A DNA stretch of 64,000 nt from an uncultured Gammaproteobacteria bacterium (lineage in GTDB: Bacteria; Patescibacteriota; Patescibacteriia; Magasanikbacterales; GCA-002688135). Under the pieces are notes generated by a model, which made no database searches, was not told the DNA's origin, and saw only the letters and a program-made list of their open reading frames with translations. Each line of letters opens with the position of its first letter. Positions within the stretch are counted from its first letter, which is position 1. Shown one piece after another: positions 2,405 through 27,506 of this stretch. The position numbers and the translations under genes are program-made. Location of the stretch: the NCBI GenBank assembly GCA_964536205.1, contig CAZHVT010000002.1, forward strand, positions 1,982 through 65,981, in the 5' to 3' direction.

Positions 2405-3295
2405 ATGCCATTTACGATTTTGCCATTCATATTAATTCTAGCTGGTGCAGTTATTGCATCCGTAATTTTGATTCGCAAATTCCCACAAATTGCATTACTC
2501 GATGTAGACAAATTACCGCAAGAAGTTCAATCACAAAAGAAAAAAGCAATTATTGAAGAGCAATATAAACGATCAATGAAAAAAACTGCAGAGAAGTTGA
2601 AAAAGTGGTCTGGGCCAATGCATACATTTTGGACAAAAACACAAAAGAAGTTTCGTGATCGTGTGCAAAAAACATATGTGCAATACGCAAAGTCTCGTGC
2701 AAAGAAACCAAAAAAATCAGAAAAAGCTCCACCACCAGAAGCGATCGCTGCATTGTTGAAAGATGCACAAACACAATTATTGATGGAGAATTACAAAGAG
2801 GCCGAGCAAAAATATATTGAGGTGATTCGTTTTGCGCCACGAACAGTTGAGGCATATCGTGGATTAGGAAGATTATACTTTGCAAAAAAACAATGGGATG
2901 AAGCGCGCGAAACATATTTGTTTATTGTGAAATTGGATGAGAAAGATGGTCGTGCTCACAATCGATTGGGAATGATTGCGGTTGAAACAGAAGATTGGAA
3001 AACAGCAGTCGCACATTTCAAACGCGCTGTTGAAATCGATAACAAAATTGCTCTGCGACATTACGATCTCGCTCATGCCTATGACAAAATGGGAAAACAG
3101 TTATATGCATTACGTTCATATGAGCGCGCAGTTTCACTCGAACCGCTCAATCCAAAATATCTTGACGCTTATTTGAAAACGGCTATACTACTCAAAAATA
3201 AAGAACTTGCACAAGCAGCATACGATCAATTAAAGATAGCAAACCCAGAAAATAAAAAGCTCGATCAGCTGCGCAGAACAATAGAAGAGTTGTGA
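2405..3295 (+). CDS. TPR-repeat protein with N-terminal transmembrane helix
   Basis: N-terminal hydrophobic segment, a Lys-rich linker, then repeated A/Y/L tetratricopeptide-like units (AYRGLGRLYFAKKQWDEA...). Confidence 0.5.
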   Translation: MPFTILPFILILAGAVIASVILIRKFPQIALLDVDKLPQEVQSQKKKAIIEEQYKRSMKKTAEKLKKWSGPMHTFWTKTQKKFRDRVQKTYVQYAKSRAKKPKKSEKAPPPEAIAALLKDAQTQLLMENYKEAEQKYIEVIRFAPRTVEAYRGLGRLYFAKKQWDEARETYLFIVKLDEKDGRAHNRLGMIAVETEDWKTAVAHFKRAVEIDNKIALRHYDLAHAYDKMGKQLYALRSYERAVSLEPLNPKYLDAYLKTAILLKNKELAQAAYDQLKIANPENKKLDQLRRTIEEL

Positions 3296-3296
3296 G

Positions 3297-3380
3297 GTTG
3301 TACGTTATACGTTCTACGATGTACGAATTTTATTAATCGCTTCGCGATTTTCGTGTGACGTAGAACGTATAACGTACAAC
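3297..3380. repeat. Perfect 22-bp inverted repeat (GTTGTACGTTATACGTTCTACG / CGTAGAACGTATAACGTACAAC) around a 40-nt core holding the palindrome AATCGCTTCGCGATT
   Basis: Read directly. The arms are built of TACGTT(A/C)-type heptamers. The same core palindrome recurs at 48815-48830. Confidence 0.6.
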
Positions 3381-3388
3381 GTTAATGT

Positions 3389-3462
3389 GCCAACGTAGCT
3401 CAGTTGGTTAGAGCGCATCCATGGTAAGGATGAGGTCAGCGGTTCAACTCCGCTCGTTGGCT
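3389..3462 (+). tRNA. tRNA-Thr (anticodon GGU)
   Basis: Manual cloverleaf: acceptor GCCAACG/CGTTGGC, D-arm GCTC..GAGC, anticodon loop ATGGTAA, T-loop TTCAACT. CCA is encoded at 3463-3465. Confidence 0.85.
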
Positions 3463-3580
3463 CCAGAACACCTTTTGGGTGTTTTTTGTTATACACAGTT
3501 TTCCACATTGTGTGTGGATGTATGTGTGGTAAAATGCGTCCTTAAGCAAATACTTAAACATTAATAAGTATCTCTATTAT

Positions 3581-4366
3581 ATGAATGACTATCATCAGAG
3601 TCAGCAGCCAAAGCGTGATAAAGATCTTTTCGATAAGATCGGATCAAAAAACTCTTTCTTTTTTGGATTGAGTTCAGGTGTCGCAGGATTTTTTGTGATC
3701 GGATTTTTTGTCCTTCTCGGAGTCTATATGACTGGCGGAGGAGGCGGAGGGGGTCGCACAGTTCAGGCAAACAAAAATCCAAGCGTAAATCCAACTCCAA
3801 CACAGCCAGCAAATCCTGGAGCAGGAGCGCCTGTCGATGTACAATTATCAGAAGATGACTGGGTGCGCGGAGATGAAAATGCAAAAATCTCCATTGTAGA
3901 ATTTTCAGATTATGATTGCCCATTCTGCTCACGTCATCACGAAACAATGAAGCAGATTCTTGATGAATATCCAGGAGATGTAAATTGGGTATATCGACAC
4001 TTCCCATTAGAACAATTGCATCCATTTGCAAAGAAAAAGTCAGAAGCAGCTGAATGTGTAGGGTCACTCGCAGGAGCAGATGCATTCTGGAAATTCACAG
4101 ATGCAATTTTTGAGGGTGATGAGGGCGGAACAGACGCAGAACTTGCAGCACTTGCAGCACAAGCAGGAGCAAATCAATCAAAATTCCAAACATGCTTAAC
4201 CAATGGAGATTTTACAGATGTTGTGGAAAATGACACGCAAAACGCACTTGCGGCCGGCGGATCAGGAACTCCATACAACGTAATCATTGCAGGGGATCAA
4301 ACAATCCCGGTAAATGGCGCAGTTCCATTCGAGCAGTTTAAGAGTATTATTGATTCACTGTTGTAG
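3581..4366 (+). CDS. DsbA/thioredoxin-fold thiol:disulfide oxidoreductase, membrane anchored
   Basis: N-terminal TM helix, a Gly-rich linker, and a CPFC active-site motif in a thioredoxin-like context (YDCPFCSRHH). Confidence 0.6.
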   Translation: MNDYHQSQQPKRDKDLFDKIGSKNSFFFGLSSGVAGFFVIGFFVLLGVYMTGGGGGGGRTVQANKNPSVNPTPTQPANPGAGAPVDVQLSEDDWVRGDENAKISIVEFSDYDCPFCSRHHETMKQILDEYPGDVNWVYRHFPLEQLHPFAKKKSEAAECVGSLAGADAFWKFTDAIFEGDEGGTDAELAALAAQAGANQSKFQTCLTNGDFTDVVENDTQNALAAGGSGTPYNVIIAGDQTIPVNGAVPFEQFKSIIDSLL

Positions 4367-4478
4367 AGGAAAGAAGCAAGAAGTAAGAATAAAGATGAGC
4401 CTCCAGTGGAGGCTCTTTTGTTTATTGACACTTTCGCAGTTGAAGATTATACTATTGGCACAATTGAATACAGTTCAT

Positions 4479-4560
4479 GGGTCGGTACCAAAGTGGTCAA
4501 CTGGGGCAGGCTGTAAACCTGCTGGCTTCGCCTTCGGGGGTTCGAACCCTCCCCGGCCCA
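4479..4560 (+). tRNA. tRNA-Tyr (anticodon GUA), class II with long variable arm
   Basis: Acceptor GGGTCGG/CCGGCCC, anticodon stem GCAGG/CCTGC with loop CTGTAAA, T-arm GGGGG-TTCGAAC-CCTCC. No CCA is encoded. Confidence 0.85.
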
Positions 4561-4574
4561 TACGAAATAGCCAT

Positions 4575-4592
4575 CCACTCGGGTGGTTTTTT
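4575..4592 (+). terminator. intrinsic terminator (CCACTCGGGTGG + T6)
   Basis: Hairpin followed by a T-run immediately after tRNA-Tyr. Confidence 0.5.
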
Positions 4593-4707
4593 CATACTTA
4601 ATTCTCACCCCCTCTTTCGGGCGTAGCCCTCGTACCTCGGGCCATCTCACTCGCTTCATTCGGATATGCAAAGCTATCGCTTTTCACATCACTCATTCCG
4701 CTCGCTC

Positions 4708-4728
4708 GTCCGAACCCTCCCCGGCCCA
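4708..4728 (+). repeat. Direct repeat of the 3-prime 21 nt of tRNA-Tyr (GTCCGAACCCTCCCCGGCCCA vs GTTCGAACCCTCCCCGGCCCA)
   Basis: 20 of 21 identity to 4540-4560. No complete tRNA can be folded around the second copy. Confidence 0.6.
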
Positions 4729-4772
4729 AATAAAAACCTCGTCTTGTGATGGACTTTTTATTTGGGTTTTTT
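4725..4772 (+). terminator. intrinsic terminator (CCCAAATAAAAA ... TTTTTATTTGGG + T6)
   Basis: 12-bp inverted repeat followed by a T-run. Confidence 0.5.
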
Positions 4773-4782
4773 GTTTGAGAGG

Positions 4783-4811
4783 TTGACAGGGTAATCAAAA
4801 AGACCTAGTAT
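4783..4811 (+). promoter_or_regulatory. sigma70-like promoter TTGACA-N17-TAGTAT for the VIT-vWA gene
   Basis: Consensus -35 and 17-nt spacing, about 45 nt upstream of the ATG. RBS AAAAGGAG. Confidence 0.45.
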
Positions 4812-4853
4812 ACAAACGGTTAATTCACAACAACAGAGCAAAAGGAGTGAGAA

Positions 4854-7208
4854 ATGACACAATCAGCTCTCGCAAGACGAATACAAGAACAAGTCGGACT
4901 GGCGATCGAACATCTGCCGCTACGATCAATGCATTTCGATGCAGAGGTTCGTGGGTTGCATGTTGGTGTACGTGTTACACAGACATTCAAAAACACACTC
5001 GACAATCCTGTGGAGGCGATTTACGTTTTTCCAATGGTTCCACAAGCTGCTGTGCTTGGTGCAAAACTGAAGATTGGAGACAAAACGATCGAATCAGAAT
5101 TGCGTAAGCGCGAAGATGCGCAAAAAGCATATGCTGAAGCTCGTGATGCTGGTCATCATGCGGCGATGGTAGGGCAGGAGCGTCCTAACATTTTCACTAT
5201 GTCTGTTGCAGGTGTTGAGCCTGGCGAGCAGATCAGTGTGGATATTCATTACATCGCGCCGGTCGACTGGCAAGATGGTGGTGGGCGCTTGCAGATTCCG
5301 CTTGTGGTTGCGCCGCACTTTGTGCCGGGGCATGCGACTGGAAAAACCGGTGGGGGATTTTCTATGGATACCGATGAGGTTCCTGATGCATCTCGCATTA
5401 CACCCAAATCGGTTCCAGAGGTGAGTTACAGCGCATCGCTTAAGTTGTCGCTGACTCCAGGATTCGAGGCTAAACTTGGATCTCCATCTCACAGCGCATT
5501 AGTTGTGTGTGACGTTGAACAGATTTGTGAAGGCGACACACGAATCATCGAACTCAACGATCTGCGTTGCGATCGCGATATCGTCATCACATACAAAACA
5601 CAAGATGAGCAGCCGACAATCGCGGTCGAGCGTCAGTCATTCATCACCACAAACGGCGAGACGGATGAACTTACGCTTCTGCAGATCTCCGCTGGATGCA
5701 TCGAAAATGAATCAGAACATCCTCTGGATGTCGCGCTTCTGCTCGACACATCCGGAAGTATGAGAGGTCAGAAAATTAACGGGTTGAAGAAGGTGGCAAA
5801 AAAGCTGCTTACTCGTTTAAGTACATTCAGTCGTCCAGTCCGAGTAACTATTCATCGATTCGCAAATTATTGTGAAGAGTTGTCTAAGTTAGCAGAGGTT
5901 GATGACTCACACTTTGATGTTATCGATCAGCTGGATGCCAGGGGTGGCACAAACGCAGGTCGTGCGATCACGGCAGTGATGGATGTCTTCAGGAGAGAAA
6001 ATAAGTATCATGAAAAATGCATTGTGTTGGTCTGCGATGGGCAGACGGATGACAGGCATTTCAAGGGTCTGGAGGGAGTTCGTATTCATTCTGTCGGAAT
6101 TGATAATGCGATTGACAACGCGACTCTCAAAGAATTTTCTGACATAACTGGAGGATCGTGCGAATGGATTCTGCCAGGCGAGGATTATGATGCAGCAGCT
6201 GCGCGAGTGGCTGGTATGGCATCTGGCCCTGTGCTGCGTGATCTGCAAATCCGTGGCTTGCCCGATAAGGCAAAAGTCGTGAATCTTGGTGATTGCTATC
6301 ATGCACAACCTCGCACGATCGGAATTCTCACTGCAGAGCCTATCGAAGGATGTGTTGTAGTTGGATGTGGTCCGGATGACACGCTATACGAGCGAGCAGT
6401 CCGTGTACCAAAAGAGACAACGACAACTCTCGTAGGTCCGCTATTTGGCAAGATGTTGCTGAACGAGCTTCAGGATCAATCTGTCAAAACTGAAACATCA
6501 CTTCGTTATGGCGTTCTGTGCAGTTCAACTGCGCTCATCGCTGTAAGTAAGAAAGATGTTCCGGGCGCAAAACCGGAAACCATCGACATTCCAGTTCTCA
6601 TGCCACATGGGTGGGAGTATGACGATCGTAGTGAGTTCGCGGTTCGTCGAATGTCAGTTGGTGTTGGTGGTCCAGCTCGCAGACGTAGAATTAGAAGATT
6701 GAGTGCTCAAGGCATTACGAGAAGAGCTATTGCGGGAGATGTTTTGAGCAAAGTATCCTATAGGACAGAAAATGCTGGCCCTCCGCGTCATGCAACCATG
6801 CAAGGCGCAAAGGAAGTCGATACTATCGATTACTCCGATATGTTGGGTGGCGGTTTGCTGGAAGATTCGGCAGGGATTTCAGCTGATGCGGATTCGAAGA
6901 AAGAAAAAGGAACTGCTGGATATTTCATCGAGCAAGCACTAATTCTTCTCAACGCGCTAGAGAATCGTCCGACATCAAAGCCTCTTCATGCACTCCATCA
7001 AGAACTCAAGATGCTAATTGCAGATTCTACGAAGTTCGCTCAATGGAGTGGTGAAGAGAAATCCCAACTCCTTCTGCTGATCGCGCAAATCGGACATGCG
7101 AATCCAGCCTATGCAATCAAGCCCAACGAGGTGTTGTTGCAAGAGCCAGCCGGACAATTCGCTCGACTCCATTGGATGCAGGCCAAGAAAATTCTCGGTC
7201 TCGCATAA
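4854..7208 (+). CDS. VIT (vault/inter-alpha-trypsin) domain + von Willebrand factor A domain protein
   Basis: N-terminal VIT-like region (EAIYVFPMVPQAAVLGAKLKIGDKTIESEL...). vWA MIDAS motif DVALLLDTSGSMRGQK. GC clearly higher than flanking genes. Confidence 0.75.
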   Translation: MTQSALARRIQEQVGLAIEHLPLRSMHFDAEVRGLHVGVRVTQTFKNTLDNPVEAIYVFPMVPQAAVLGAKLKIGDKTIESELRKREDAQKAYAEARDAGHHAAMVGQERPNIFTMSVAGVEPGEQISVDIHYIAPVDWQDGGGRLQIPLVVAPHFVPGHATGKTGGGFSMDTDEVPDASRITPKSVPEVSYSASLKLSLTPGFEAKLGSPSHSALVVCDVEQICEGDTRIIELNDLRCDRDIVITYKTQDEQPTIAVERQSFITTNGETDELTLLQISAGCIENESEHPLDVALLLDTSGSMRGQKINGLKKVAKKLLTRLSTFSRPVRVTIHRFANYCEELSKLAEVDDSHFDVIDQLDARGGTNAGRAITAVMDVFRRENKYHEKCIVLVCDGQTDDRHFKGLEGVRIHSVGIDNAIDNATLKEFSDITGGSCEWILPGEDYDAAAARVAGMASGPVLRDLQIRGLPDKAKVVNLGDCYHAQPRTIGILTAEPIEGCVVVGCGPDDTLYERAVRVPKETTTTLVGPLFGKMLLNELQDQSVKTETSLRYGVLCSSTALIAVSKKDVPGAKPETIDIPVLMPHGWEYDDRSEFAVRRMSVGVGGPARRRRIRRLSAQGITRRAIAGDVLSKVSYRTENAGPPRHATMQGAKEVDTIDYSDMLGGGLLEDSAGISADADSKKEKGTAGYFIEQALILLNALENRPTSKPLHALHQELKMLIADSTKFAQWSGEEKSQLLLLIAQIGHANPAYAIKPNEVLLQEPAGQFARLHWMQAKKILGLA

Positions 7209-7214
7209 GGGCAT

Positions 7215-7247
7215 AAGCTCTTCGACTACGGTCGGAGAGCTTTTTTT
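7215..7247 (+). terminator. intrinsic terminator
   Basis: AAGCTCTTCGAC-TACG-GTCGGAGAGCTT hairpin followed by T7. Confidence 0.55.
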
Positions 7248-7261
7248 GTTATAATCAGAGC

Positions 7262-8740: not shown

Positions 8741-8896
8741 ATGTCACAGGATAACTTAATTAAGCTCGAGTGCACCGACTGTAAAACAATCGGATACCGC
8801 AGCACCAAAAATAAGAAGAAGCTCAAGAATCGTCTCGAGCTCAAAAAACACTGCAAGAAATGCACGAAGCACACAAACCACAAGGAGACAAAATAA
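8741..8896 (+). CDS. rpmG: 50S ribosomal protein L33 (51 aa; absent from the ORF track because it is under 60 aa)
   Basis: Translation [51 protein letters not shown], with the L33 C4 zinc-ribbon pattern (CxxC...CxxC). Confidence 0.8.
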
Positions 8897-10071: not shown

Positions 10072-10893
10072 ATGGGTACTCGAAATCCTCAGTTCGATTC
10101 ATACGACACGATTCACGCTACCATGACAGTGTTGCGGAAAGCAGGTTTGTTCACTGATGGTCTGGATGCGATCCTTCGTAAAAAAGGTAATGCCAAGCGA
10201 GGAGTCGACGCTCTCATGCGCGAGTTCAAGCTCGATGGAGTCAACGAGTTCACACTCGATCTCGAAACGCAACTCGAGCGATTCGCAGAAGCACTCCCAA
10301 AGCTTCGACAGATCGGCTTCACCTTCATGGACAAGTCAGATGAAGAGGTGCTGCGAGAGCTCCGTGAAACAGCACCTGCCTGGCCCGAAGGTAAACGATG
10401 CTTTCGCTTCGTCCAAATCCGCGAGGGTGAGGGTGGCGAAGGTGTGCAAAAGACCTTCGATCTCCATAAGCAAATGATGTCACAAACATTCACACCCAAG
10501 TGGCGGCGCGGGGATCATATCAAAACAGATAAGGATCATCTGCGCCTACTCGCTGGCAACGAAACACACAAGACCTGCTTCGGCTGGGTCTGTGCGGACA
10601 TGGACTCCAACAGGCAGCGCAATTCCATCATTGCAGTGCGTGGAGATAGCTCTCTCGCCGACGAGATTTTGGCCTTCAACTGGCAGTTCCCCGCGTACTG
10701 CAAAGCGATCGATTATAAGGAGAATCCTGGCCTGTTCGCTGCGGGTTACGAGCTTTCAGTCGATGGCTGCGAGGACTGGAGCCATATGCCGCTCATGGGC
10801 CGCGATCTGGACACCGACGAGGTCGACCTGCTCGCCCACCACCGTAGCATCGACAACTCTGTCTACTCTGTGCCGTCTCGTCTCAGGGAGTAA
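10072..10893 (+). CDS. hypothetical protein (GC-rich, no recognisable motif)
   Basis: 273-aa ORF with strong RBS, promoter and terminator. Composition near 50 percent GC against about 35 percent for the backbone. Confidence 0.5.
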   Translation: MGTRNPQFDSYDTIHATMTVLRKAGLFTDGLDAILRKKGNAKRGVDALMREFKLDGVNEFTLDLETQLERFAEALPKLRQIGFTFMDKSDEEVLRELRETAPAWPEGKRCFRFVQIREGEGGEGVQKTFDLHKQMMSQTFTPKWRRGDHIKTDKDHLRLLAGNETHKTCFGWVCADMDSNRQRNSIIAVRGDSSLADEILAFNWQFPAYCKAIDYKENPGLFAAGYELSVDGCEDWSHMPLMGRDLDTDEVDLLAHHRSIDNSVYSVPSRLRE

Positions 10894-11685: not shown

Positions 11686-11742
11686 TTGTATTGTGTTAAG
11701 ATGATGTCGTCAGTTTACATTTACTATTTACACACGAAACAT

Positions 11743-11862
11743 ATGGCAAAACGACATGGAGCTATCGGGCAAAGACAAAAGTCAAAATCAAGAAAGACTA
11801 AAAAACGACTTGCAGTAAAGGCAGAAATGCTCGCAAAAAAAGCTGGTAAAAAAGGTAAGTAA
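11743..11862 (+). CDS. small, very basic protein (39 aa, MAKRHGAIGQRQKSKSRKTKKRLAVKAEMLAKKAGKKGK), possibly ribosomal-like
   Basis: Internal ATG of the 64-aa track ORF, since the upstream part is hydrophobic junk. The identity is a guess. Confidence 0.25.
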   Translation: MAKRHGAIGQRQKSKSRKTKKRLAVKAEMLAKKAGKKGK

Positions 11863-12059: not shown

Positions 12060-13538
12060 ATGCGTAAAACAATGGAATATGTCGATATTGTCGGCAAGCG
12101 ACATGAAGTAAGGTGGAGCGAGTTATTGGAGGCAATTGAGCGCGTTCGTGCTTTGTTCTCTTCCGTGAAAAGGCGTTTTGTTGAAAGAGAGTCGGTCATT
12201 GATCAAATCAAACATGCCATGCTGTTGCGTGAGCATATTTTGATCAACGGACCATCTGGCGCAGCGAAGTCAATGTTGATTCGAGCGATTACCAAGGCGA
12301 TTACCAATGCTCGATTGTGGTCAATGGACTTGACTCGTTTTACGACAAACAGTCAGGTGTTTGGTGGATACGATGCTCGTCAGCTTCGTGAAACGGGACA
12401 CTCTATTCATTTGACCGAGTTTTCAGCCGCCGATGCACACTTCATTCAATTGGGTGAATTTTTCGATGCGCCTCCGCCAACACTACGAACGCTTCTCGGG
12501 TTGCTCAACGAGCGACGCATTAGAAATGGTCCGCAGTTGATCGAGCCGCCGCTGTTGACGGCGATTGGCGATACAAACTTCTCAATGGAAATGCTGACCG
12601 AAAAAAGTCAGCAGCAGCTGGCCGCAGTAGTGGATCGCTTCCTGTTCAGGGAAGAGGTTGATTATGTGGTCGAGCCAGCAAATCGACGTCAGATGCTCGC
12701 GATGAGTTTGGATCCCCGGGTCCAAGACAAACTTCCACAAGTATCACTCGATGATATTGTGATGATTTCTGGAGTCGTGAAAGGAATGAATCTGATGCTC
12801 GATCCGTACATCATCGATGCATATGAGGAGATGACTCGTCGGTACAGCGCATTGCGTCAAGAGAAAGGCGGCTTGAGAGTTTCAGATCGGCGCTATGTAC
12901 GCGGTGCACAGATCATGGAAGTTTCCGCGTTATTGCATGGTCGACAGGCGGTTACATTTGAGGATTTGGCGATTACGCGCTATGTGCTCGCTCACAATGA
13001 AAATGATGTTGATATGCTCATCGAGATCAAGAAGGGTGTTATTGGCACATGGGTAAAACGCGCATCTCGTCGTGAAATTGAATCTGAACTACATCGTCTC
13101 GCACAGGTCATAAAAGATCTACCAAAGAGTGATAACGTTGATATTGAATCCATGAAGCTGGATGAACTGAAGGCATTTGCATCTCAATTAGAAAAGATGC
13201 AAAGCTCGCTTCAAGAATTCAAAACAGATTCGCTTGAGGTGGGGCAAAAAGTTGCCGAGTGGACACGGGCGATTCTAGCTTTGCAACATCAAGCCGTGCA
13301 TCACGGAATTTCACTCATCGAACAGATGATTCCAGAGACGACAACGAACATGAGTGCTGAAACTGTGGGACCGGTTGGAAAGCAGGTGAATATAGCGCTG
13401 AATGAGTTGCGTAGTGTTCCAACACTAAGTGATGACTTAATTGTTCGTCAGTCTGAAGTGATGGTAAAGGCGTTGCAAGCTCGACATAATGTAGATTCTT
13501 CGATGGAGAATCTCGGTGTTGTGAGTAAGGAGGGCTAG
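12060..13538 (+). CDS. MoxR-like AAA+ ATPase with C-terminal coiled-coil extension
   Basis: Walker A ILINGPSGAAKS, MoxR-type LLTAIGDTN (the ATQNP-equivalent) and sensor region RVSDRRYVRGAQIMEVSALLHGRQAVTFEDL. The translated sequence is GC-richer than the backbone. Confidence 0.65.
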   Translation: MRKTMEYVDIVGKRHEVRWSELLEAIERVRALFSSVKRRFVERESVIDQIKHAMLLREHILINGPSGAAKSMLIRAITKAITNARLWSMDLTRFTTNSQVFGGYDARQLRETGHSIHLTEFSAADAHFIQLGEFFDAPPPTLRTLLGLLNERRIRNGPQLIEPPLLTAIGDTNFSMEMLTEKSQQQLAAVVDRFLFREEVDYVVEPANRRQMLAMSLDPRVQDKLPQVSLDDIVMISGVVKGMNLMLDPYIIDAYEEMTRRYSALRQEKGGLRVSDRRYVRGAQIMEVSALLHGRQAVTFEDLAITRYVLAHNENDVDMLIEIKKGVIGTWVKRASRREIESELHRLAQVIKDLPKSDNVDIESMKLDELKAFASQLEKMQSSLQEFKTDSLEVGQKVAEWTRAILALQHQAVHHGISLIEQMIPETTTNMSAETVGPVGKQVNIALNELRSVPTLSDDLIVRQSEVMVKALQARHNVDSSMENLGVVSKEG

Positions 13539-14570
13539 ATGGATCCTATTACGTTTTGGTTGTTAATGTCTGGCTTAGGAGGAGCTGGAGCTGCAGGAGC
13601 GGCTCTGTTGTATCGGTTGATGAAAGGTCCGAGACTACCTGAATTACCTCCAATGCCAGAACCAAAACCACCGGAAATTCCTGTAAGACAGGATGGTATT
13701 ATCGATGCAGAGGAGCTAGAAGAAGAGGAGGATGACTCTTTATTGAGCGACAAGGATGTCGTGAAGCAGATTGTTGGTGGCATAGGTTTTTCCGCGCAGT
13801 ACGTGCAGGTTGGCGAGCGAGTTGTCGGACAACGTTTTCTCGGTTATCGAGAAGAAGAATCTATATATCCTGATGACGACATGACAGTTCGACCAATACG
13901 AGATGTAGCTGAGATGGCTTCATTATTGGGCAGCGAGAATGCGCAAGATGATGATATATTGTACGCACGCATTGCACGTGGGGAAGCACTCGTTACAGCT
14001 TACACAACACAAGAAGAAGTGTTTGAAGATGTACACGAGCCAGTTATGGAAGCTCGGCGCAGAACACTGTATATTCTCCTTGATCTTTCGCCATCCATGT
14101 TTCCAAAACACTCTCGTTGGAGATGGAAGATTTGGGGACCGCTTGTGCTGATGCTTCTACAAAAAGCATTTCAAAATCAAGTTGTGTTTTTGATGAGGTA
14201 TTTTGGCGGAACGGTTTCAAAGTTGATGCGCGCCGTATCACAAGAAGAAGTTGCGAAACTTGAGCGATCTATCAGAAGTGCACAATGGATCTCCTCAACA
14301 GATATAACTGCTGCGGTATACACGGCACTACGGGATTTTGATGATGAAGAATACGACAATGCACAAGTTGTATTGATCACAGACGGGGAGCACAATCAGG
14401 GGACATTCAATCCATCGAAAGTGCGTAAGGCTTTTGATGATCGTAATGTCACATTACATGCGATCTTGCTCGGCGTTAAGAATGACGGATTGAGACAAGC
14501 TGCGCACAGTTACGTGCAAGTTGATCATCATGATCGCAGGGGATTATTTACCATAATCAATCAAGTATAA
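13539..14570 (+). CDS. membrane-anchored von Willebrand factor A domain protein, partner of the MoxR-like ATPase
   Basis: N-terminal TM helix plus Pro-rich linker. MIDAS motif LYILLDLSPSMF with downstream vWA-like beta-alpha pattern (VVLITDGEHNQG). Start abuts the stop of 12060-13538. Confidence 0.65.
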   Translation: MDPITFWLLMSGLGGAGAAGAALLYRLMKGPRLPELPPMPEPKPPEIPVRQDGIIDAEELEEEEDDSLLSDKDVVKQIVGGIGFSAQYVQVGERVVGQRFLGYREEESIYPDDDMTVRPIRDVAEMASLLGSENAQDDDILYARIARGEALVTAYTTQEEVFEDVHEPVMEARRRTLYILLDLSPSMFPKHSRWRWKIWGPLVLMLLQKAFQNQVVFLMRYFGGTVSKLMRAVSQEEVAKLERSIRSAQWISSTDITAAVYTALRDFDDEEYDNAQVVLITDGEHNQGTFNPSKVRKAFDDRNVTLHAILLGVKNDGLRQAAHSYVQVDHHDRRGLFTIINQV

Positions 14571-24017: not shown

Positions 24018-25262
24018 ATGGCACAACTTTGTGTCCAAACTATCTATGGGCAGGATCCTGCGTATGCAGATCCACGAACTGGAACCCTGGTGAACGCCAT
24101 CGTGCGGATCACTCCTGAAATCCCGGATGTGAGTACACCACTCAACATCATCTGGGTGCAGGATCGGTCTGGATCGATGAAAGGCGAAAAGCTGAAGCAG
24201 AGCAAGACTGTTCTGAAAAAGCTGATCGACGGTCTTGATAGAAATGACCGTGCGGGTGTGATTGCGTTCAATCAAGAACATGAGATCATCGCCCCTCTCA
24301 AGACGATGCGTGCACATTACAGGCGGATGGCAAAGATCGCTGTAAAGCGGATGGGGGCGAAGGGTGCAACTCGACTGTCAGCTCCGCTGCTTGAAGCGGT
24401 GAGTCTGAAAGATGAGGAGTCACAGATTCCTCGTACGGTTGTGATGCTGACTGACGGTCTTTCACAATGTGGCAGTGTTAAACATGATGAAGAGCAACTC
24501 ATCCGAGCTGCTCAAAAGCTCTATCGGGAAGGTGGACGTCTGATCATGATTGGGATTGGCGCAGATTACAATTCAGATCTTCTGGAGCGTGTCTGTGAGG
24601 CTGGACCAGATTTCGAGATGTTCCATGTCTCCACAACAAATCCTGCGGAAATCGATGAAGTCACGCGGGAGGTGATGTGTGAACTTCGCTCTGCTTCGAT
24701 TGGTAATCTTCAGATTGCTGGTCAAGTTGCGCGTGGTGTCGAACTCAAAAGTGTGACATCATTCACGCCAACGCAGCGCCCTCATGAAGTGAAGCGCGGA
24801 AAGTTCTCTATCAATTCAGGTTCGCTTTCAAAGCATCGAGGTCAGCATCTGCTGTTCGAGATGTTGGTGAAAAATCCGAAAGTCGGATCGAGGAATCTCA
24901 TGACACTTGCAATGAAAGGTGTCAGAAGAGGTGATTCAGTCGAAGAGATCAGTATGTCACACGTACTCTCTTTGAGATTCACGACTAATCCAAAAGATGC
25001 AGTCAAGCAGACTGAAAAAGAAGTCCAAGACTGCATCATTCGCGCTGAAGCTCATCGAAAGATGAAAAACAAGCTGTACGATGTTGCGGCACATCTCTAT
25101 GAGATGATCGGCGATACATTCATGGCGCAGCAGGCTAGAAAAGCTGAGCGTCAGGCTGCGCGAGGTGGTCTCGAGGCAATCGACGCTCACCGAACCATCA
25201 CGACAGGCTCTGTGGGAAGCACACGAGCTGTGTCTCGCGACTGGTCGACAAGGGAGTGTTAA
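24018..25262 (+). CDS. von Willebrand factor A domain protein (414 aa)
   Basis: MIDAS motif IIWVQDRSGSMKGEK with downstream VVMLTDG. The C-terminal 200 aa are unassigned. GC-rich. Confidence 0.65.
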   Translation: MAQLCVQTIYGQDPAYADPRTGTLVNAIVRITPEIPDVSTPLNIIWVQDRSGSMKGEKLKQSKTVLKKLIDGLDRNDRAGVIAFNQEHEIIAPLKTMRAHYRRMAKIAVKRMGAKGATRLSAPLLEAVSLKDEESQIPRTVVMLTDGLSQCGSVKHDEEQLIRAAQKLYREGGRLIMIGIGADYNSDLLERVCEAGPDFEMFHVSTTNPAEIDEVTREVMCELRSASIGNLQIAGQVARGVELKSVTSFTPTQRPHEVKRGKFSINSGSLSKHRGQHLLFEMLVKNPKVGSRNLMTLAMKGVRRGDSVEEISMSHVLSLRFTTNPKDAVKQTEKEVQDCIIRAEAHRKMKNKLYDVAAHLYEMIGDTFMAQQARKAERQAARGGLEAIDAHRTITTGSVGSTRAVSRDWSTREC

Positions 25263-25263
25263 G

Positions 25264-25902
25264 ATGAAAGATGCACTCTTTACGCAAGTTGTCTGCAGGA
25301 AATGCAGTACGGAAAATCGGGTTGGTGCGGTGCTGTGCGAGAATCAAGATTGTCGTGCTGTATTGCAAGCTCGTCGTATTGTAACCCAAGACGCTGATCC
25401 AGATGCTGATCTCGGTCCTGTAACAATGCCAGAAGCGTCATCTGCGGACATCGACAACAATGATGATATACCTCGATTTGTTGTCATCGAAAATGATGGC
25501 GTCAGCATTCTGGAAGCAGCGAAGTTTGAAGCGCATATTCCACTGATTCGGCTTTTTGATAAGGATATGATCAGTATCGGAAGACGCGCACGACCACATC
25601 CTGATTTCGAGCCACACATGGATTTCGGTTTTCTCTTCTACAATTGGACTGAAGGGAGAGACTATCCTATTTCTCGCAAAGGAGCTTTGTTGTATGGCGA
25701 GAAAGGAACATTGAAATTGCGACGTGTGGGACGAGCTCCAATTCGTGTGCGGAGACAGGGGAAAGGCAAGGCGCTGGCTTTGCAAAAATATGTCACAATT
25801 AAAGTCGAGAACGGCGATGTGCTGTGTTTCGGCAATCTCACGAACCACTTTAAAGTAGTGATTCGTGGTGTGACGCAAGAGATTCTTGATGATCTAGATT
25901 GA
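25264..25902 (+). CDS. zinc-ribbon + FHA (forkhead-associated) domain protein
   Basis: N-terminal CxxC-N14-CxxxxC (CRKCSTENRVGAVLCENQDC). C-terminal FHA-like pattern ISIGRRA ... ISRKGALL ... NGDVLCFGN. Starts 2 nt after the vWA stop. Confidence 0.55.
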   Translation: MKDALFTQVVCRKCSTENRVGAVLCENQDCRAVLQARRIVTQDADPDADLGPVTMPEASSADIDNNDDIPRFVVIENDGVSILEAAKFEAHIPLIRLFDKDMISIGRRARPHPDFEPHMDFGFLFYNWTEGRDYPISRKGALLYGEKGTLKLRRVGRAPIRVRRQGKGKALALQKYVTIKVENGDVLCFGNLTNHFKVVIRGVTQEILDDLD

Positions 25903-25922
25903 GCTCTAAGGAGTCTCAATAT

Positions 25923-25949
25923 GCCGCCCGTAACTCGGGCGGTTTTTTA
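25923..25949 (+). terminator. intrinsic terminator (CCGCCCG-TAACT-CGGGCGG + T6)
   Basis: Read directly. Confidence 0.6.
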
Positions 25950-26042
25950 TTTTATTTAACTCAAATTATACACAAATGAATCATCCCGCGCCTTATATCT
26001 TAGTGTAGAACATACACTAAGTAAGTTACGAGTAAAAAAGGG

Positions 26043-26095
26043 TTGACAAGGATGTGGGGAATTGATATGTTGATTGGCCTTATCGATAGTATAAT
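26043..26095 (+). promoter_or_regulatory. promoter region with TTGACA (26043) and TAGTATAAT (26087-26095)
   Basis: Possibly tandem promoters. The spacing to TATAAT is suboptimal, so confidence is low. Confidence 0.35.
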
Positions 26096-26164
26096 GATGA
26101 GGAAAACGACTTATGTATTGAGTCGTAAACGATCATTAAACCTCGTGCAAAAAGGGAGAAGCAC

Positions 26165-27496
26165 ATGGCTGATGAAAAGAAAACAACAACCAAGAAACCA
26201 GCAAAGAAAAAGAAACCAGATTATCCGGAGCGATGGGCCAATGTGATCGGAGCTTTTGCGAAGTCACTTGGTTCGGATCTTGAGGCGATGACGCCGGTAC
26301 TGGCCTCTCTGGCCGGCGAACCGAGCGATGAAGCGCTGGAGACTCTCGCAAACAGCGGGTATGTCTCTGACGAGCTCATCCGGGAAGCTCTCGGAAATGC
26401 AGGATTGAAGGTTGGCGAAAGCGTGCCGATCGGCGTGTTCAACAAGAACCTCGCCGCTCTGCGAACTGCATGTGCACCCGCCGCACCTACTGCACCTACT
26501 GCACCAGCACCCACCGCCGATCTTTTCGGTGGCGGTGTTGGCTCGTACGACATTCTGCCGAACGTCCCCGAAGACAGCGTGAGCCTGCTTAGCAAGCTCA
26601 CGATCGGTGGCGAACTCAAGGTGGATGAAGTTTCTGTTCTGTGCGCCGCTCGAGCATTGCTCGCACAGCGAACTGGCGTTCGAGACGTGCCCGGAAAGCT
26701 GATCGATCTCATGGATGCGCATGCAGACGACGTCACTGCAGAGCCGTTCACAACGGCAATGTATGATGTGTACGAAACGGTCGAGAAGATCAAGAATCGT
26801 CGGTCTCATGGGGATATCCTCAAGGCTGTCGGTGTGCCCGGAAGTTTTGCAAACGCGAAGCGGAAGAGGCAGTTCCTCGAGCGTGTTGAAAAGCATCTTG
26901 TTCCCGGACTCTTCGAGTTCCGAAGCACGGTCAAGAGCTGGCAGGATTCGTATCTTGCTGCAGGCGCCAATCCCATGCAGATGATGCAGGTGATCGCGGC
27001 TGTCGTGCAGCGATTGCCGGTGCCGGGAGGGATGGCGCCACCCGACACCGCGATGATTCGCGATGCGGCGCTGTCGTTCAACGATGCGGCCAACAAAACG
27101 TTCGCCGGTTCCGGCATTCCTTGTGCTCGTGCACTCGCTCACGATGTGATCGAGATCCACGGGCTGCTCGATCTCGATCTTCTGCCTTTGGCATGCGGAT
27201 TCACGACGCGTGACCAGTTGCTCAAATCGCTCAAGATCAATGCGAGTCGAACCGATGAGCGCAACGAGCACGCGCTGGCTCGCTACATCATCTCGGTCAT
27301 CCGCATGAAGGACGTTGCGCCGGGTCATTCGGAGCTTGCGTACGTCAATGCACTGACTATGCTCGACACGCAGATCAAGTGGGATTCGCTGGGTCTCGCT
27401 GGAAGAGGAACGCCCGGCTTCATCGATCGCGCGAGCGGATCCGGTCCGTTGTCCGACAAGGGCAATGGTGGCTCGTCCAGCCGCTATCCGCGGTAG
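26165..27496 (+). CDS. hypothetical protein, very GC-rich (443 aa), Lys-rich N-terminus, Ala/Pro linker (PAAPTAPTAPAPTAD)
   Basis: Long ORF with RBS AAAGGGAG. A 413-aa antisense ORF is open opposite it, as expected for high-GC DNA. No motif recognised. Confidence 0.5.
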   Translation: MADEKKTTTKKPAKKKKPDYPERWANVIGAFAKSLGSDLEAMTPVLASLAGEPSDEALETLANSGYVSDELIREALGNAGLKVGESVPIGVFNKNLAALRTACAPAAPTAPTAPAPTADLFGGGVGSYDILPNVPEDSVSLLSKLTIGGELKVDEVSVLCAARALLAQRTGVRDVPGKLIDLMDAHADDVTAEPFTTAMYDVYETVEKIKNRRSHGDILKAVGVPGSFANAKRKRQFLERVEKHLVPGLFEFRSTVKSWQDSYLAAGANPMQMMQVIAAVVQRLPVPGGMAPPDTAMIRDAALSFNDAANKTFAGSGIPCARALAHDVIEIHGLLDLDLLPLACGFTTRDQLLKSLKINASRTDERNEHALARYIISVIRMKDVAPGHSELAYVNALTMLDTQIKWDSLGLAGRGTPGFIDRASGSGPLSDKGNGGSSSRYPR

Positions 27497-27506
27497 ATCC
27501 ATCACG

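Follow-up and report, generated by a model that had tools for sequence, protein, structure and literature searches.

In the 64,000-nucleotide stretch of patescibacterial DNA analyzed here (assembly GCA_964536205.1, contig CAZHVT010000002.1, forward-strand positions 1,982 to 65,981; hereafter the window), the intact tRNA-Tyr gene is followed by a second, partial tRNA-Tyr 3' half, which comprises approximately positions 44–54, then positions 56–73, and is split at T55 by an 86-nt insert. The whole module is inherited: it is present in a lineage (L075) whose PGI protein is 66% identical to that of the window, and is partly inverted in a third (L072). A related insert occupies the same T-loop position of a tRNA-Thr fragment. 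Our preferred explanation, held tentatively, is that the insert is a small structured insertion element which entered the TTCGAA of T-loop DNA within a displaced tRNA fragment. A first-pass annotation of this DNA had instead read the repeated tRNA end as an integration scar and the adjacent VIT-vWA gene as its cargo. The parts of the locus, in window coordinates, are as follows.

4425–4453, plus strand: promoter-like site of tRNA-Tyr, TTGACA-17-TATACT, 11 of 12 consensus matches
4479–4560, plus strand: tRNA-Tyr(GUA), intact and intronless (Rfam, 49.6 bits)
4569–4594, plus strand: native intrinsic terminator of tRNA-Tyr, 8-bp stem and T run (terminator scan)
4595–4611, plus strand: conserved linker containing TAATTCTCAC, which is identical in L075 (alignments)
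4612–4624, plus strand: left arm, a degenerate copy of the tRNA-Tyr variable arm and T-stem 5' strand, ending at T54
4625–4710, strand undefined: insert (Y), 86 nt, replacing T55 of the pseudo-copy; conserved and non-coding
4626–4642, strand undefined: hairpin A, 4-bp stem GCCC/GGGC with a 9-nt loop (four-copy alignment)
4650–4706, strand undefined: hairpin B, core stem 4663–4668/4685–4690, inner stem 4670–4674/4679–4683 and a weaker outer helix
4711–4728, plus strand: right arm, identical to tRNA-Tyr from C56 through A73 (BLAST)
4725–4773, plus strand: AT-rich 12-bp hairpin and T run, a possible second terminator (inverted-repeat search)

The tRNA-Tyr gene, which ARAGORN places at 4478–4561, has its acceptor stem beginning at 4479 and its discriminator A at 4560; CCA is not encoded. 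The same TTGACA...TATACT arrangement is found upstream of tRNA-Tyr in L072, L092 and L096. The repetition of the tRNA 3' end, as originally described, is real: the 21-mer at 4540–4560 is found again at 4708–4728 with 20 of 21 positions identical (one mismatch), and a search allowing up to three mismatches returns 2 matches in 64 kb and 0 in 100 shuffles, such that none is expected by chance. The exact repeat spans 18 nt, with 4543–4560 equal to 4711–4728, and 150 bp (4561–4710) separate the end of the gene from the start of the exact copy. This interval had been described as empty. It holds the native terminator, a short linker, the degenerate left arm and the conserved insert with its two hairpins. 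Within the left arm, CTCTTTCGGGCGT corresponds to GCCTTCGGGGGT at 4530–4541 of tRNA-Tyr, and the exact 10-mer CTTCGGGGGT is retained in the left arm of L075. Each tRNA copy had also been credited with its own terminator, which holds for the first: a canonical terminator-like hairpin (4569–4588) is followed by a T run, and an orthologous hairpin and T run lie directly 3' of tRNA-Tyr in L068, L072 and L075. The candidate after the second copy, an AT-rich hairpin with arms at 4725–4736 and 4755–4766, an 18-nt loop and then TTTTTT, overlaps that copy and was not called by the terminator scan.

Syntenic relatives were collected via homologs of the flanking PGI and DsbA-like genes, with the following identities to the window proteins.

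L068: PGI 84%, DsbA 93%
L072, L073 and L074: PGI 67%, DsbA 71%
L075, L076 and L093: PGI 66%, DsbA 76%
L092: contig too short for PGI, DsbA 86%
L096: contig too short for PGI, DsbA 62%
L097: contig too short for PGI, DsbA 56%

The more distant PGI/DsbA homologs P0125 and P0246 were rejected, being either not syntenic or on contigs that are too short. The 22-kb neighborhood of the window itself recurs with identical spacing in several marine metagenome contigs of one population. In L075, L076 and L093, tRNA-Tyr is followed by a terminator, ~110 nt of spacer, the tRNA 3' end once more and another terminator. The L075 gene encodes CCA, and its two copies share 36 nt and a similar terminator. In L072 the direct module is absent, and ~60 nt of it instead lie inverted directly after the tRNA-Tyr terminator (local alignment z = 9.4). 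The nearest relative, L068, lacks the module. The fragment tracks the gene DNA of each lineage and not the mature tRNA, since the L075 copy includes CCA and 11 nt of trailer like its own gene, and the window copy has neither.

The module is conserved to a degree that its neighborhood is not. Over the whole 146-nt spacer, insert included, the window matches L075 at 112 of 142 aligned positions (79%), as against 0.435 of fourfold-degenerate sites in PGI and 0.478 in DsbA. Jukes–Cantor estimates of ~0.25 substitutions per site for the spacer versus ~1.0 for fourfold sites indicate an approximately fourfold slower evolution of the module relative to synonymous sites. Beyond the terminator, the spacer (4595–4707) aligns with z = 15 against shuffles, whereas the other intergenic stretches are 52–71% identical and the sequence 3' of the second copy is not conserved (57% identity, z = 1.3). 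The tRNA-Thr/GT2 spacer, which seems conserved, contains a 51-codon open reading frame (ORF) resembling ribosomal protein L33. A protein-coding reading of the module was rejected, as the window and L075 differ by a frameshift and a stop that leave no shared ORF. Against Rfam 15 the spacer and module gave no credible match (14 kb searched at E ≤ 1, and 275 nt at E ≤ 10), and no recognizable promoter adjoins the module on either strand.

An nhmmer profile of the module gave a weak match downstream of tRNA-Thr(UGU) in L072. Here, 34 nt after the intact gene, a tRNA-Thr fragment consists of positions 36–54 (11694–11712, 19 nt, exact), an 83-nt insert and positions 56–76 (11796–11816, exact), with only T55 missing, as beside tRNA-Tyr. 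The 83-nt insert is related to the 86-nt insert of the window and sits at the same T-loop position. Two independent insertion loci are known, tRNA-Tyr and the tRNA-Thr(UGU) of L072, both at T55; nhmmer found no further copy of the insert in the window or in ~100 loci, a search of loci rather than of whole genomes. A second kind of tRNA-fragment junction also recurs in this family: 5' ghost fragments (tRNA positions 1–18) lie ~90 nt upstream of tRNA-Thr(UGU) in L072 (11479–11496) and of tRNA-Thr(GGU) in L076 (556–571), and both are then followed by the same 14-mer, CCCAGGCGAAGCCG.

Four copies of the insert align across its length and across both junctions, and compensatory substitutions keep the pairs of its hairpins, as expected of a structured RNA, over these three to four sequences. 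Hairpin A pairs in every copy, with the stems GCCC/GGGC, GCTC/GAGC, CTTC/GAAG and CTGG/CCAG, and three pairs in the hairpin B core show double changes among the four. When three sequences are compared, 8 of 20 pairs have changed on both sides and 91.7% of cells are paired, which 0–1 of 500 shuffles equal; structures slid by 1–3 columns are only 33–55% paired. The inverted copy of L072 retains the hairpins although its tRNA-derived arms have decayed, so the insert looks like the conserved unit. Two A·C cells on the tRNA-sense strand of the four-copy alignment become G·U on the opposite strand, and the helices of hairpins A and B together, with 7 G·U cells against 1 on the complement, follow the same trend. 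This wobble pattern mildly favors the bottom strand, whether as RNA or as single-stranded DNA in folded form. Folding of single sequences gives weak z-scores (−1.0 to −2.9).

These features could be accommodated as follows. The tRNA fragment would have been made at the DNA level, by an old recombination directed at the tRNA gene (tDNA) or by a local duplication, copying the gene together with its flank. An origin by ancient tDNA-directed recombination is possible, given that the T-loop is a known crossover sub-site of integrases (PMC4383910) and that 5' ghost fragments occur in relatives. The insert, a putative small non-autonomous structured element, would have entered the palindromic TTCGAA of the T-loop DNA and would persist only in non-essential tRNA fragments. 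Its hairpins may be the part that acts in cis, possibly recognized as a single strand in folded form, for which the G·T/G·U pattern would favor the strand opposite the tRNA. Other identities were rejected. A primer-binding site, whose bottom strand is complementary to mature tRNA, does not fit a window copy that has no CCA complement and follows gene and flank. The insert shows no similarity to the group I introns of L068, L075 and L096, of which it might have been a remnant. Nor can it be the intron of a working tRNA, as the copies have no tRNA 5' half and splicing would not give a normal T-loop. A tRNA-like fold of the fragment likewise fails, the T-stem and acceptor strand having no 5' partner.

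The IS200/IS605-derived PATEs and the REP/REPIN sequences are small non-autonomous structured elements with which the insert can be compared. Like them it is short (83–86 nt), keeps its hairpins by compensation and not by sequence, has neither terminal inverted repeats nor a target duplication, adjoins a fixed TTCG (on the bottom strand) and has strand-asymmetric wobbles. Unlike them it is known from two loci only and has cost its target one nucleotide, and no Y1/HUH transposase or RAYT was seen in the window. No cognate transposase was found in the 64-kb window and its flanks. The geometry of IS608 is not matched, as hairpin A lies 1–2 nt from the end of the insert.

Several observations weigh against an insertion element. 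The absence of terminal inverted repeats and of a target-site duplication departs from the classical description of miniature inverted-repeat transposable elements, and the loss of a single nucleotide, T55, at both loci fits no described transposition chemistry. With only two insertion loci the evidence for mobility is thin, and the 54 window ORFs that were scanned contain no integrase, transposase, Y1 or HUH domain and are housekeeping genes or of unknown function. The covariation was counted on the same three to four sequences from which the structures were derived. Moreover, in the last quarter of DsbA the fourfold identity between the window and L075 reaches 0.65, albeit over only 23 sites in a local test of synonymous divergence that is noisy, and a recent exchange of the locus could also give the high similarity. 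Finally, the linker, which lies outside the insert, is conserved too, and this points to a host function of the whole module rather than to a selfish element. That function might be exerted by a non-coding RNA, which we consider a rather unlikely but serious candidate: a read-through 3'-trailer RNA, or an opposite-strand antisense RNA whose two arms would base-pair with tRNA-Tyr to either side of U55, acting in tRNA-Tyr processing or regulation, or as a small RNA (sRNA) or sponge, as RttR of the Escherichia coli tyrT operon may do. Constraint on the whole module, the covarying hairpins, a G·U pattern that favors the opposite strand and the terminator-like hairpins flanking the module all speak for such an RNA, as does the tyrT-tyrV 3' flank of E. 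coli K-12. That flank, which also carries tpr, contains three units of 95% identity at a spacing of 178 bp, of which the unit adjoining tyrV overlaps the last 19 nt of tyrV, and the sRNA RttR is annotated in the same stretch. As a tRNA-Tyr operon with the 3' end of the gene repeated in its 3' flank, it appears, by analogy, to be the closest documented counterpart of the module architecture. It shares no sequence similarity with the module, however, and is a tandem array of long units where the window has a single one; moreover, its units do not consist of insert-split tRNA halves, and nothing comparable adjoins a second tRNA. A host RNA is further disfavored by the lack of an adjoining promoter and of an Rfam family, by the weak folding scores, and by the dispensability of the module, which is lost in L068 and rearranged in L072. 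A guide or antisense RNA that acts by pairing would also be expected to keep its arms and not its hairpins, yet it is the arms that decay (the left one in the window, and those of L072) and the hairpins that persist.

Unequal crossing-over has been proposed for the tyrT repeats of E. coli, and this analogous architecture lends something to the idea that the module is a neutral relic of a tandem tRNA-Tyr duplication formed in the same way, its similarity maintained via gene conversion or recent exchange. The 36 nt and the similar terminator shared by the two L075 copies likewise suggest homogenization with the gene. Gene conversion cannot, however, keep the insert or the linker, for which the gene offers no template. 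That both hairpins show compensatory changes among the four copies indicates that structure is under selection, and a homologous insert is present in the tRNA-Thr fragment; we therefore give this idea little credence. Similarly improbable is the original proposal, whereby the repeats are an attL/attR pair from an integrase-mediated insertion at the tRNA-Tyr 3' end, the island was almost wholly deleted, and the VIT-vWA gene is surviving or associated cargo. An intact tRNA gene with a same-orientation 3'-end fragment is indeed the signature of tDNA-targeting integrases, and the identity starts in the T-loop, one of their known crossover sub-sites (PMC4383910). This fragment signature and a variable region flanking the tRNA are what stands of the proposal: gene content beside tRNA-Tyr and tRNA-Thr(GGU) differs among relatives, and the VIT-vWA gene has diverged to excess at synonymous and non-synonymous sites. 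The criteria of Islander include an integrase and an island length of 2–200 kb (PMC4383910). Compared with the islands delimited by Islander/TIGER, the window has the intact tDNA and the same-strand downstream fragment, but the 150-bp interval between them encodes no tyrosine integrase (there is no shared ORF) and falls short of 2 kb. That the window lacks an integrase had been noted from the start, and a Pfam scan of the 54 ORFs spanning it found neither an integrase nor a transposase domain. The fragment does not keep the native flank either; the terminator that follows the intact gene is orthologous to those of L068 and L072 and has thus stayed with that gene, contrary to integration, which would displace the flank to the fragment. 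Rather than being an empty or decayed scar, the spacer is conserved (79% versus 43–48%) and the fragment is split internally at T55 by the insert. The arrangement is also kept across deep divergence. Comparison with relatives, which the first-pass annotation had proposed as a check, shows that the distant relative L075 has the same "empty" arrangement and no island, the first of two findings named in advance as refuting a scar (the other being that the 21-mer is a common genomic repeat). The tRNA-Thr of L072 has the same short-range layout, with 34 nt between gene and fragment, and two independent near-total island deletions are unlikely. The VIT-vWA gene lies outside the repeats, the suggested search for further 21-mers yields no third copy in 64 kb that would bracket it, and it is present in L068 without the repeat.

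Searches for a matching mobile element were negative. The core 20-mer GTYCGAACCCTCCCCGGCCC, as a candidate attP, has 0 exact matches in IMG/VR viral contigs, and BLAST of the module against phages and plasmids gave no match, which is weak evidence as patescibacterial elements are poorly sampled. A metagenome scan for the fragment variant TCCGAACCCTCCCCGGCCC returned 15 matches, all on unrelated GC-rich contigs, and did not return the window's own JGI contigs. A gapped motif of the insert had 66 matches in viral contigs, estimated to be about the number expected by chance, and was rejected; nhmmer on those 66 gave one weak match (E = 0.13), on 3 contigs, in apparently GC-rich coding sequence with no tRNA nearby. 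A bolder version of the insertion-element proposal, and in our view a very long shot, is that the 83–86-nt insert represents an undescribed class of T-loop-specific element, either mobile DNA that inserts at TTCGAA in place of T55 or a guide-like RNA of the bottom strand. In the guide-like version, which shares these long odds, the arms would pair with tRNA positions 36/44–54 and 56–73/76, leaving only U55 unpaired beneath the structured domain. U55 is the universal pseudouridine site, and we know of no report in bacteria of a topology resembling a pseudouridylation guide pocket.

In several relatives the tRNA-Tyr gene is itself interrupted. A group I intron occupies the anticodon loop in L068, L075, L076, L093, L092 and L096, and is absent from the window and L072. 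RF00028 matches it in L068 and L075 (45 bits, E = 1e-8), and in the other lineages it was read from the sequence; its positions are 6874–7243 in L068, 1590–1811 in L075, from ~1334 in L092 and at ~1013–1209 in L096. The L068 intron carries an extra insertion of ~160 nt. All four combinations of intron and split fragment are seen, and the two are thus independent. Group I introns interrupting genes for tRNAs are common in uncultured phyla (10.1101/2020.01.27.920355), and their presence in the tRNA-Tyr of relatives shows that the locus is a target of selfish elements. They differ from the insert in that the window gene is intronless, and the insert is dissimilar to them and sits in a pseudo-copy's T-loop instead of a working gene's anticodon loop. 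An ORF of 203–207 aa (6211–6834 in L068, 940–1551 in L075) stops 1 nt short of the intron-bearing gene, at its 5' side. It has an N-terminal helix-turn-helix (weak Pfam matches to HTH_38 and HTH_28), with no Pfam endonuclease domain or other Pfam match. Its LAGVVLYWGEG resembles, by eye, the LAGLIDADG motif, which suggests a free-standing homing endonuclease, possibly working with the intron.

The VIT-vWA gene is a resident, fast-evolving gene in a variable region flanking the tRNA, and not cargo of the repeat. Its description as a GC-rich gene of 784 aa with its own promoter-like site and terminator is confirmed.

4783–4811, plus strand: promoter-like site TTGACA-17-TAGTAT; the same hexamers are upstream of the L068 ortholog
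4854–7208, plus strand: VIT-vWA gene, 784 aa, outside the repeat pair (Pfam)
7215–7252, plus strand: terminator, 12-bp stem (7215–7242) and T run (terminator scan)

The protein matches PF08487 (VIT, 2.3e-29) and PF00092 (VWA, 4.2e-15), and the D-x-S-x-S residues of its metal ion-dependent adhesion site (D298, S300 and S302) are invariant across 16 homologs. With its N-terminal VIT domain, vWA D-x-S-x-S and length, it resembles the bacterial VIT+vWA proteins of ~780 aa that source databases name "Ca-activated chloride channel family", and differs from them in belonging to a clade common to bacteria of the candidate phyla radiation (CPR) and DPANN archaea. The closest homologs, 38–50% identical, are from Uhrbacteria, Falkowbacteria and other Patescibacteria, with a few from DPANN archaea. 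Homologs of 34–36% identity occur in L023, L024 and L026, contigs labeled Woesearchaeota or Aenigmatarchaeota, which suggests that the family has been exchanged between episymbiotic bacteria and archaea, unless these contigs are mis-binned.

What lies between tRNA-Tyr and PGI varies among the relatives. L068 has an ortholog in the same position, without the module, of 799 aa and 56% identity (BLASTP), and no database match is closer. L072 has a remnant, a 219-aa ORF whose C-terminus matches that of VIT-vWA (E = 9e-19). The gene is absent from L075, and L096 has a different GC-rich ORF after tRNA-Tyr. The ortholog in place in L068 and the remnant in L072 indicate that at least three lineages share an ancestor in which the gene was already resident. 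In other Patescibacteria it adjoins tRNA-Tyr at 0 of 16 loci, all of which are too distant (≤46% identity) to inform. Its divergence from L068, set beside that of its neighbors, is given below as amino acid identity, fourfold-site identity and, where available, the random expectation for the latter.

VIT-vWA: 59%, 0.36, random expectation 0.26
PGI: 84%, 0.56, random expectation 0.35
DsbA: 93%, 0.65, random expectation 0.40
TIM: 85%, 0.54
TPR: 96%, 0.54

The excess divergence of VIT-vWA fits either fast evolution or allelic exchange. At 48.9% GC versus 42.3% in the rest of the window, the gene stands out in composition; at 14 of 16 CPR and DPANN loci (L013–L027, L053), its homologs are ~5–20 GC points richer than their flanks. 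GC-richness is thus a trait of the family and not evidence for recent arrival, and a family that is GC-rich in almost every host examined calls for caution in using GC content as a signal of transfer. The window has further GC-rich patches (10072–10893, 12060–14570 and 24018–27500) in a genome of ~41% GC. Most of them correspond to genes of vWA or MoxR type or to conserved hypotheticals, and their composition is stable and gene-specific; the GC3 of a 273-aa hypothetical is 0.62 in the window and 0.66 in L072. The patch at 12060–14570, 5 kb from VIT-vWA, encodes a bpMoxR-type AAA ATPase (492 aa) and then a 343-aa protein with a weak vWA match, which resembles a MoxR-vWA-like pair, and a further vWA gene is located at 24018–25262. 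In L068, a sigma-70-like gene (162 aa) and a 632-aa vWA gene lie between tRNA-Thr(GGU) and DsbA (2632–5050). This pair is absent from the window and is flanked by no tRNA-Thr fragment, representing another gain or loss beside a tRNA gene.

When a fragment of a tRNA gene lies beside an intact one, it is routinely taken for the scar of an integration and serves to mark island boundaries. At this locus the fragment belongs to a structured module that is conserved, and a homologous insert occurs in a second tRNA at the same nucleotide of the T-loop; a conserved insert in such a position varies the tRNA-fragment theme in a new way. A mobile insert would mean a new element directed at the T-loop in the reduced patescibacterial genomes, and an RNA would mean an additional tRNA-linked regulator in this group. 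To our knowledge, few mobile elements and almost no characterized sRNAs have been described from Patescibacteria. Within one marine family of this phylum, a single tRNA-Tyr gene thus has three separate polymorphisms, namely the intron with its endonuclease-like ORF, the split fragment and the vWA gene, and the locus offers a compact system for how selfish elements use tRNA genes.

Two further features of the window lie near its tRNA-Thr genes. A 31-nt inverted repeat at 3297–3380, 87% complementary with a 22-nt loop, is located between the TPR gene and tRNA-Thr(GGU); the corresponding spacers of L072 and L076 lack it. The L33-like ORF (8741–8896, 51 codons) is just 3' of tRNA-Thr(UGU), has a CxxC...CxxC pattern that includes HCKKC, and resembles ribosomal protein L33 (rpmG). 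L075 and L072 conserve it too, and it extends over the predicted start of the GT2 ORF (8860), which probably begins further downstream.

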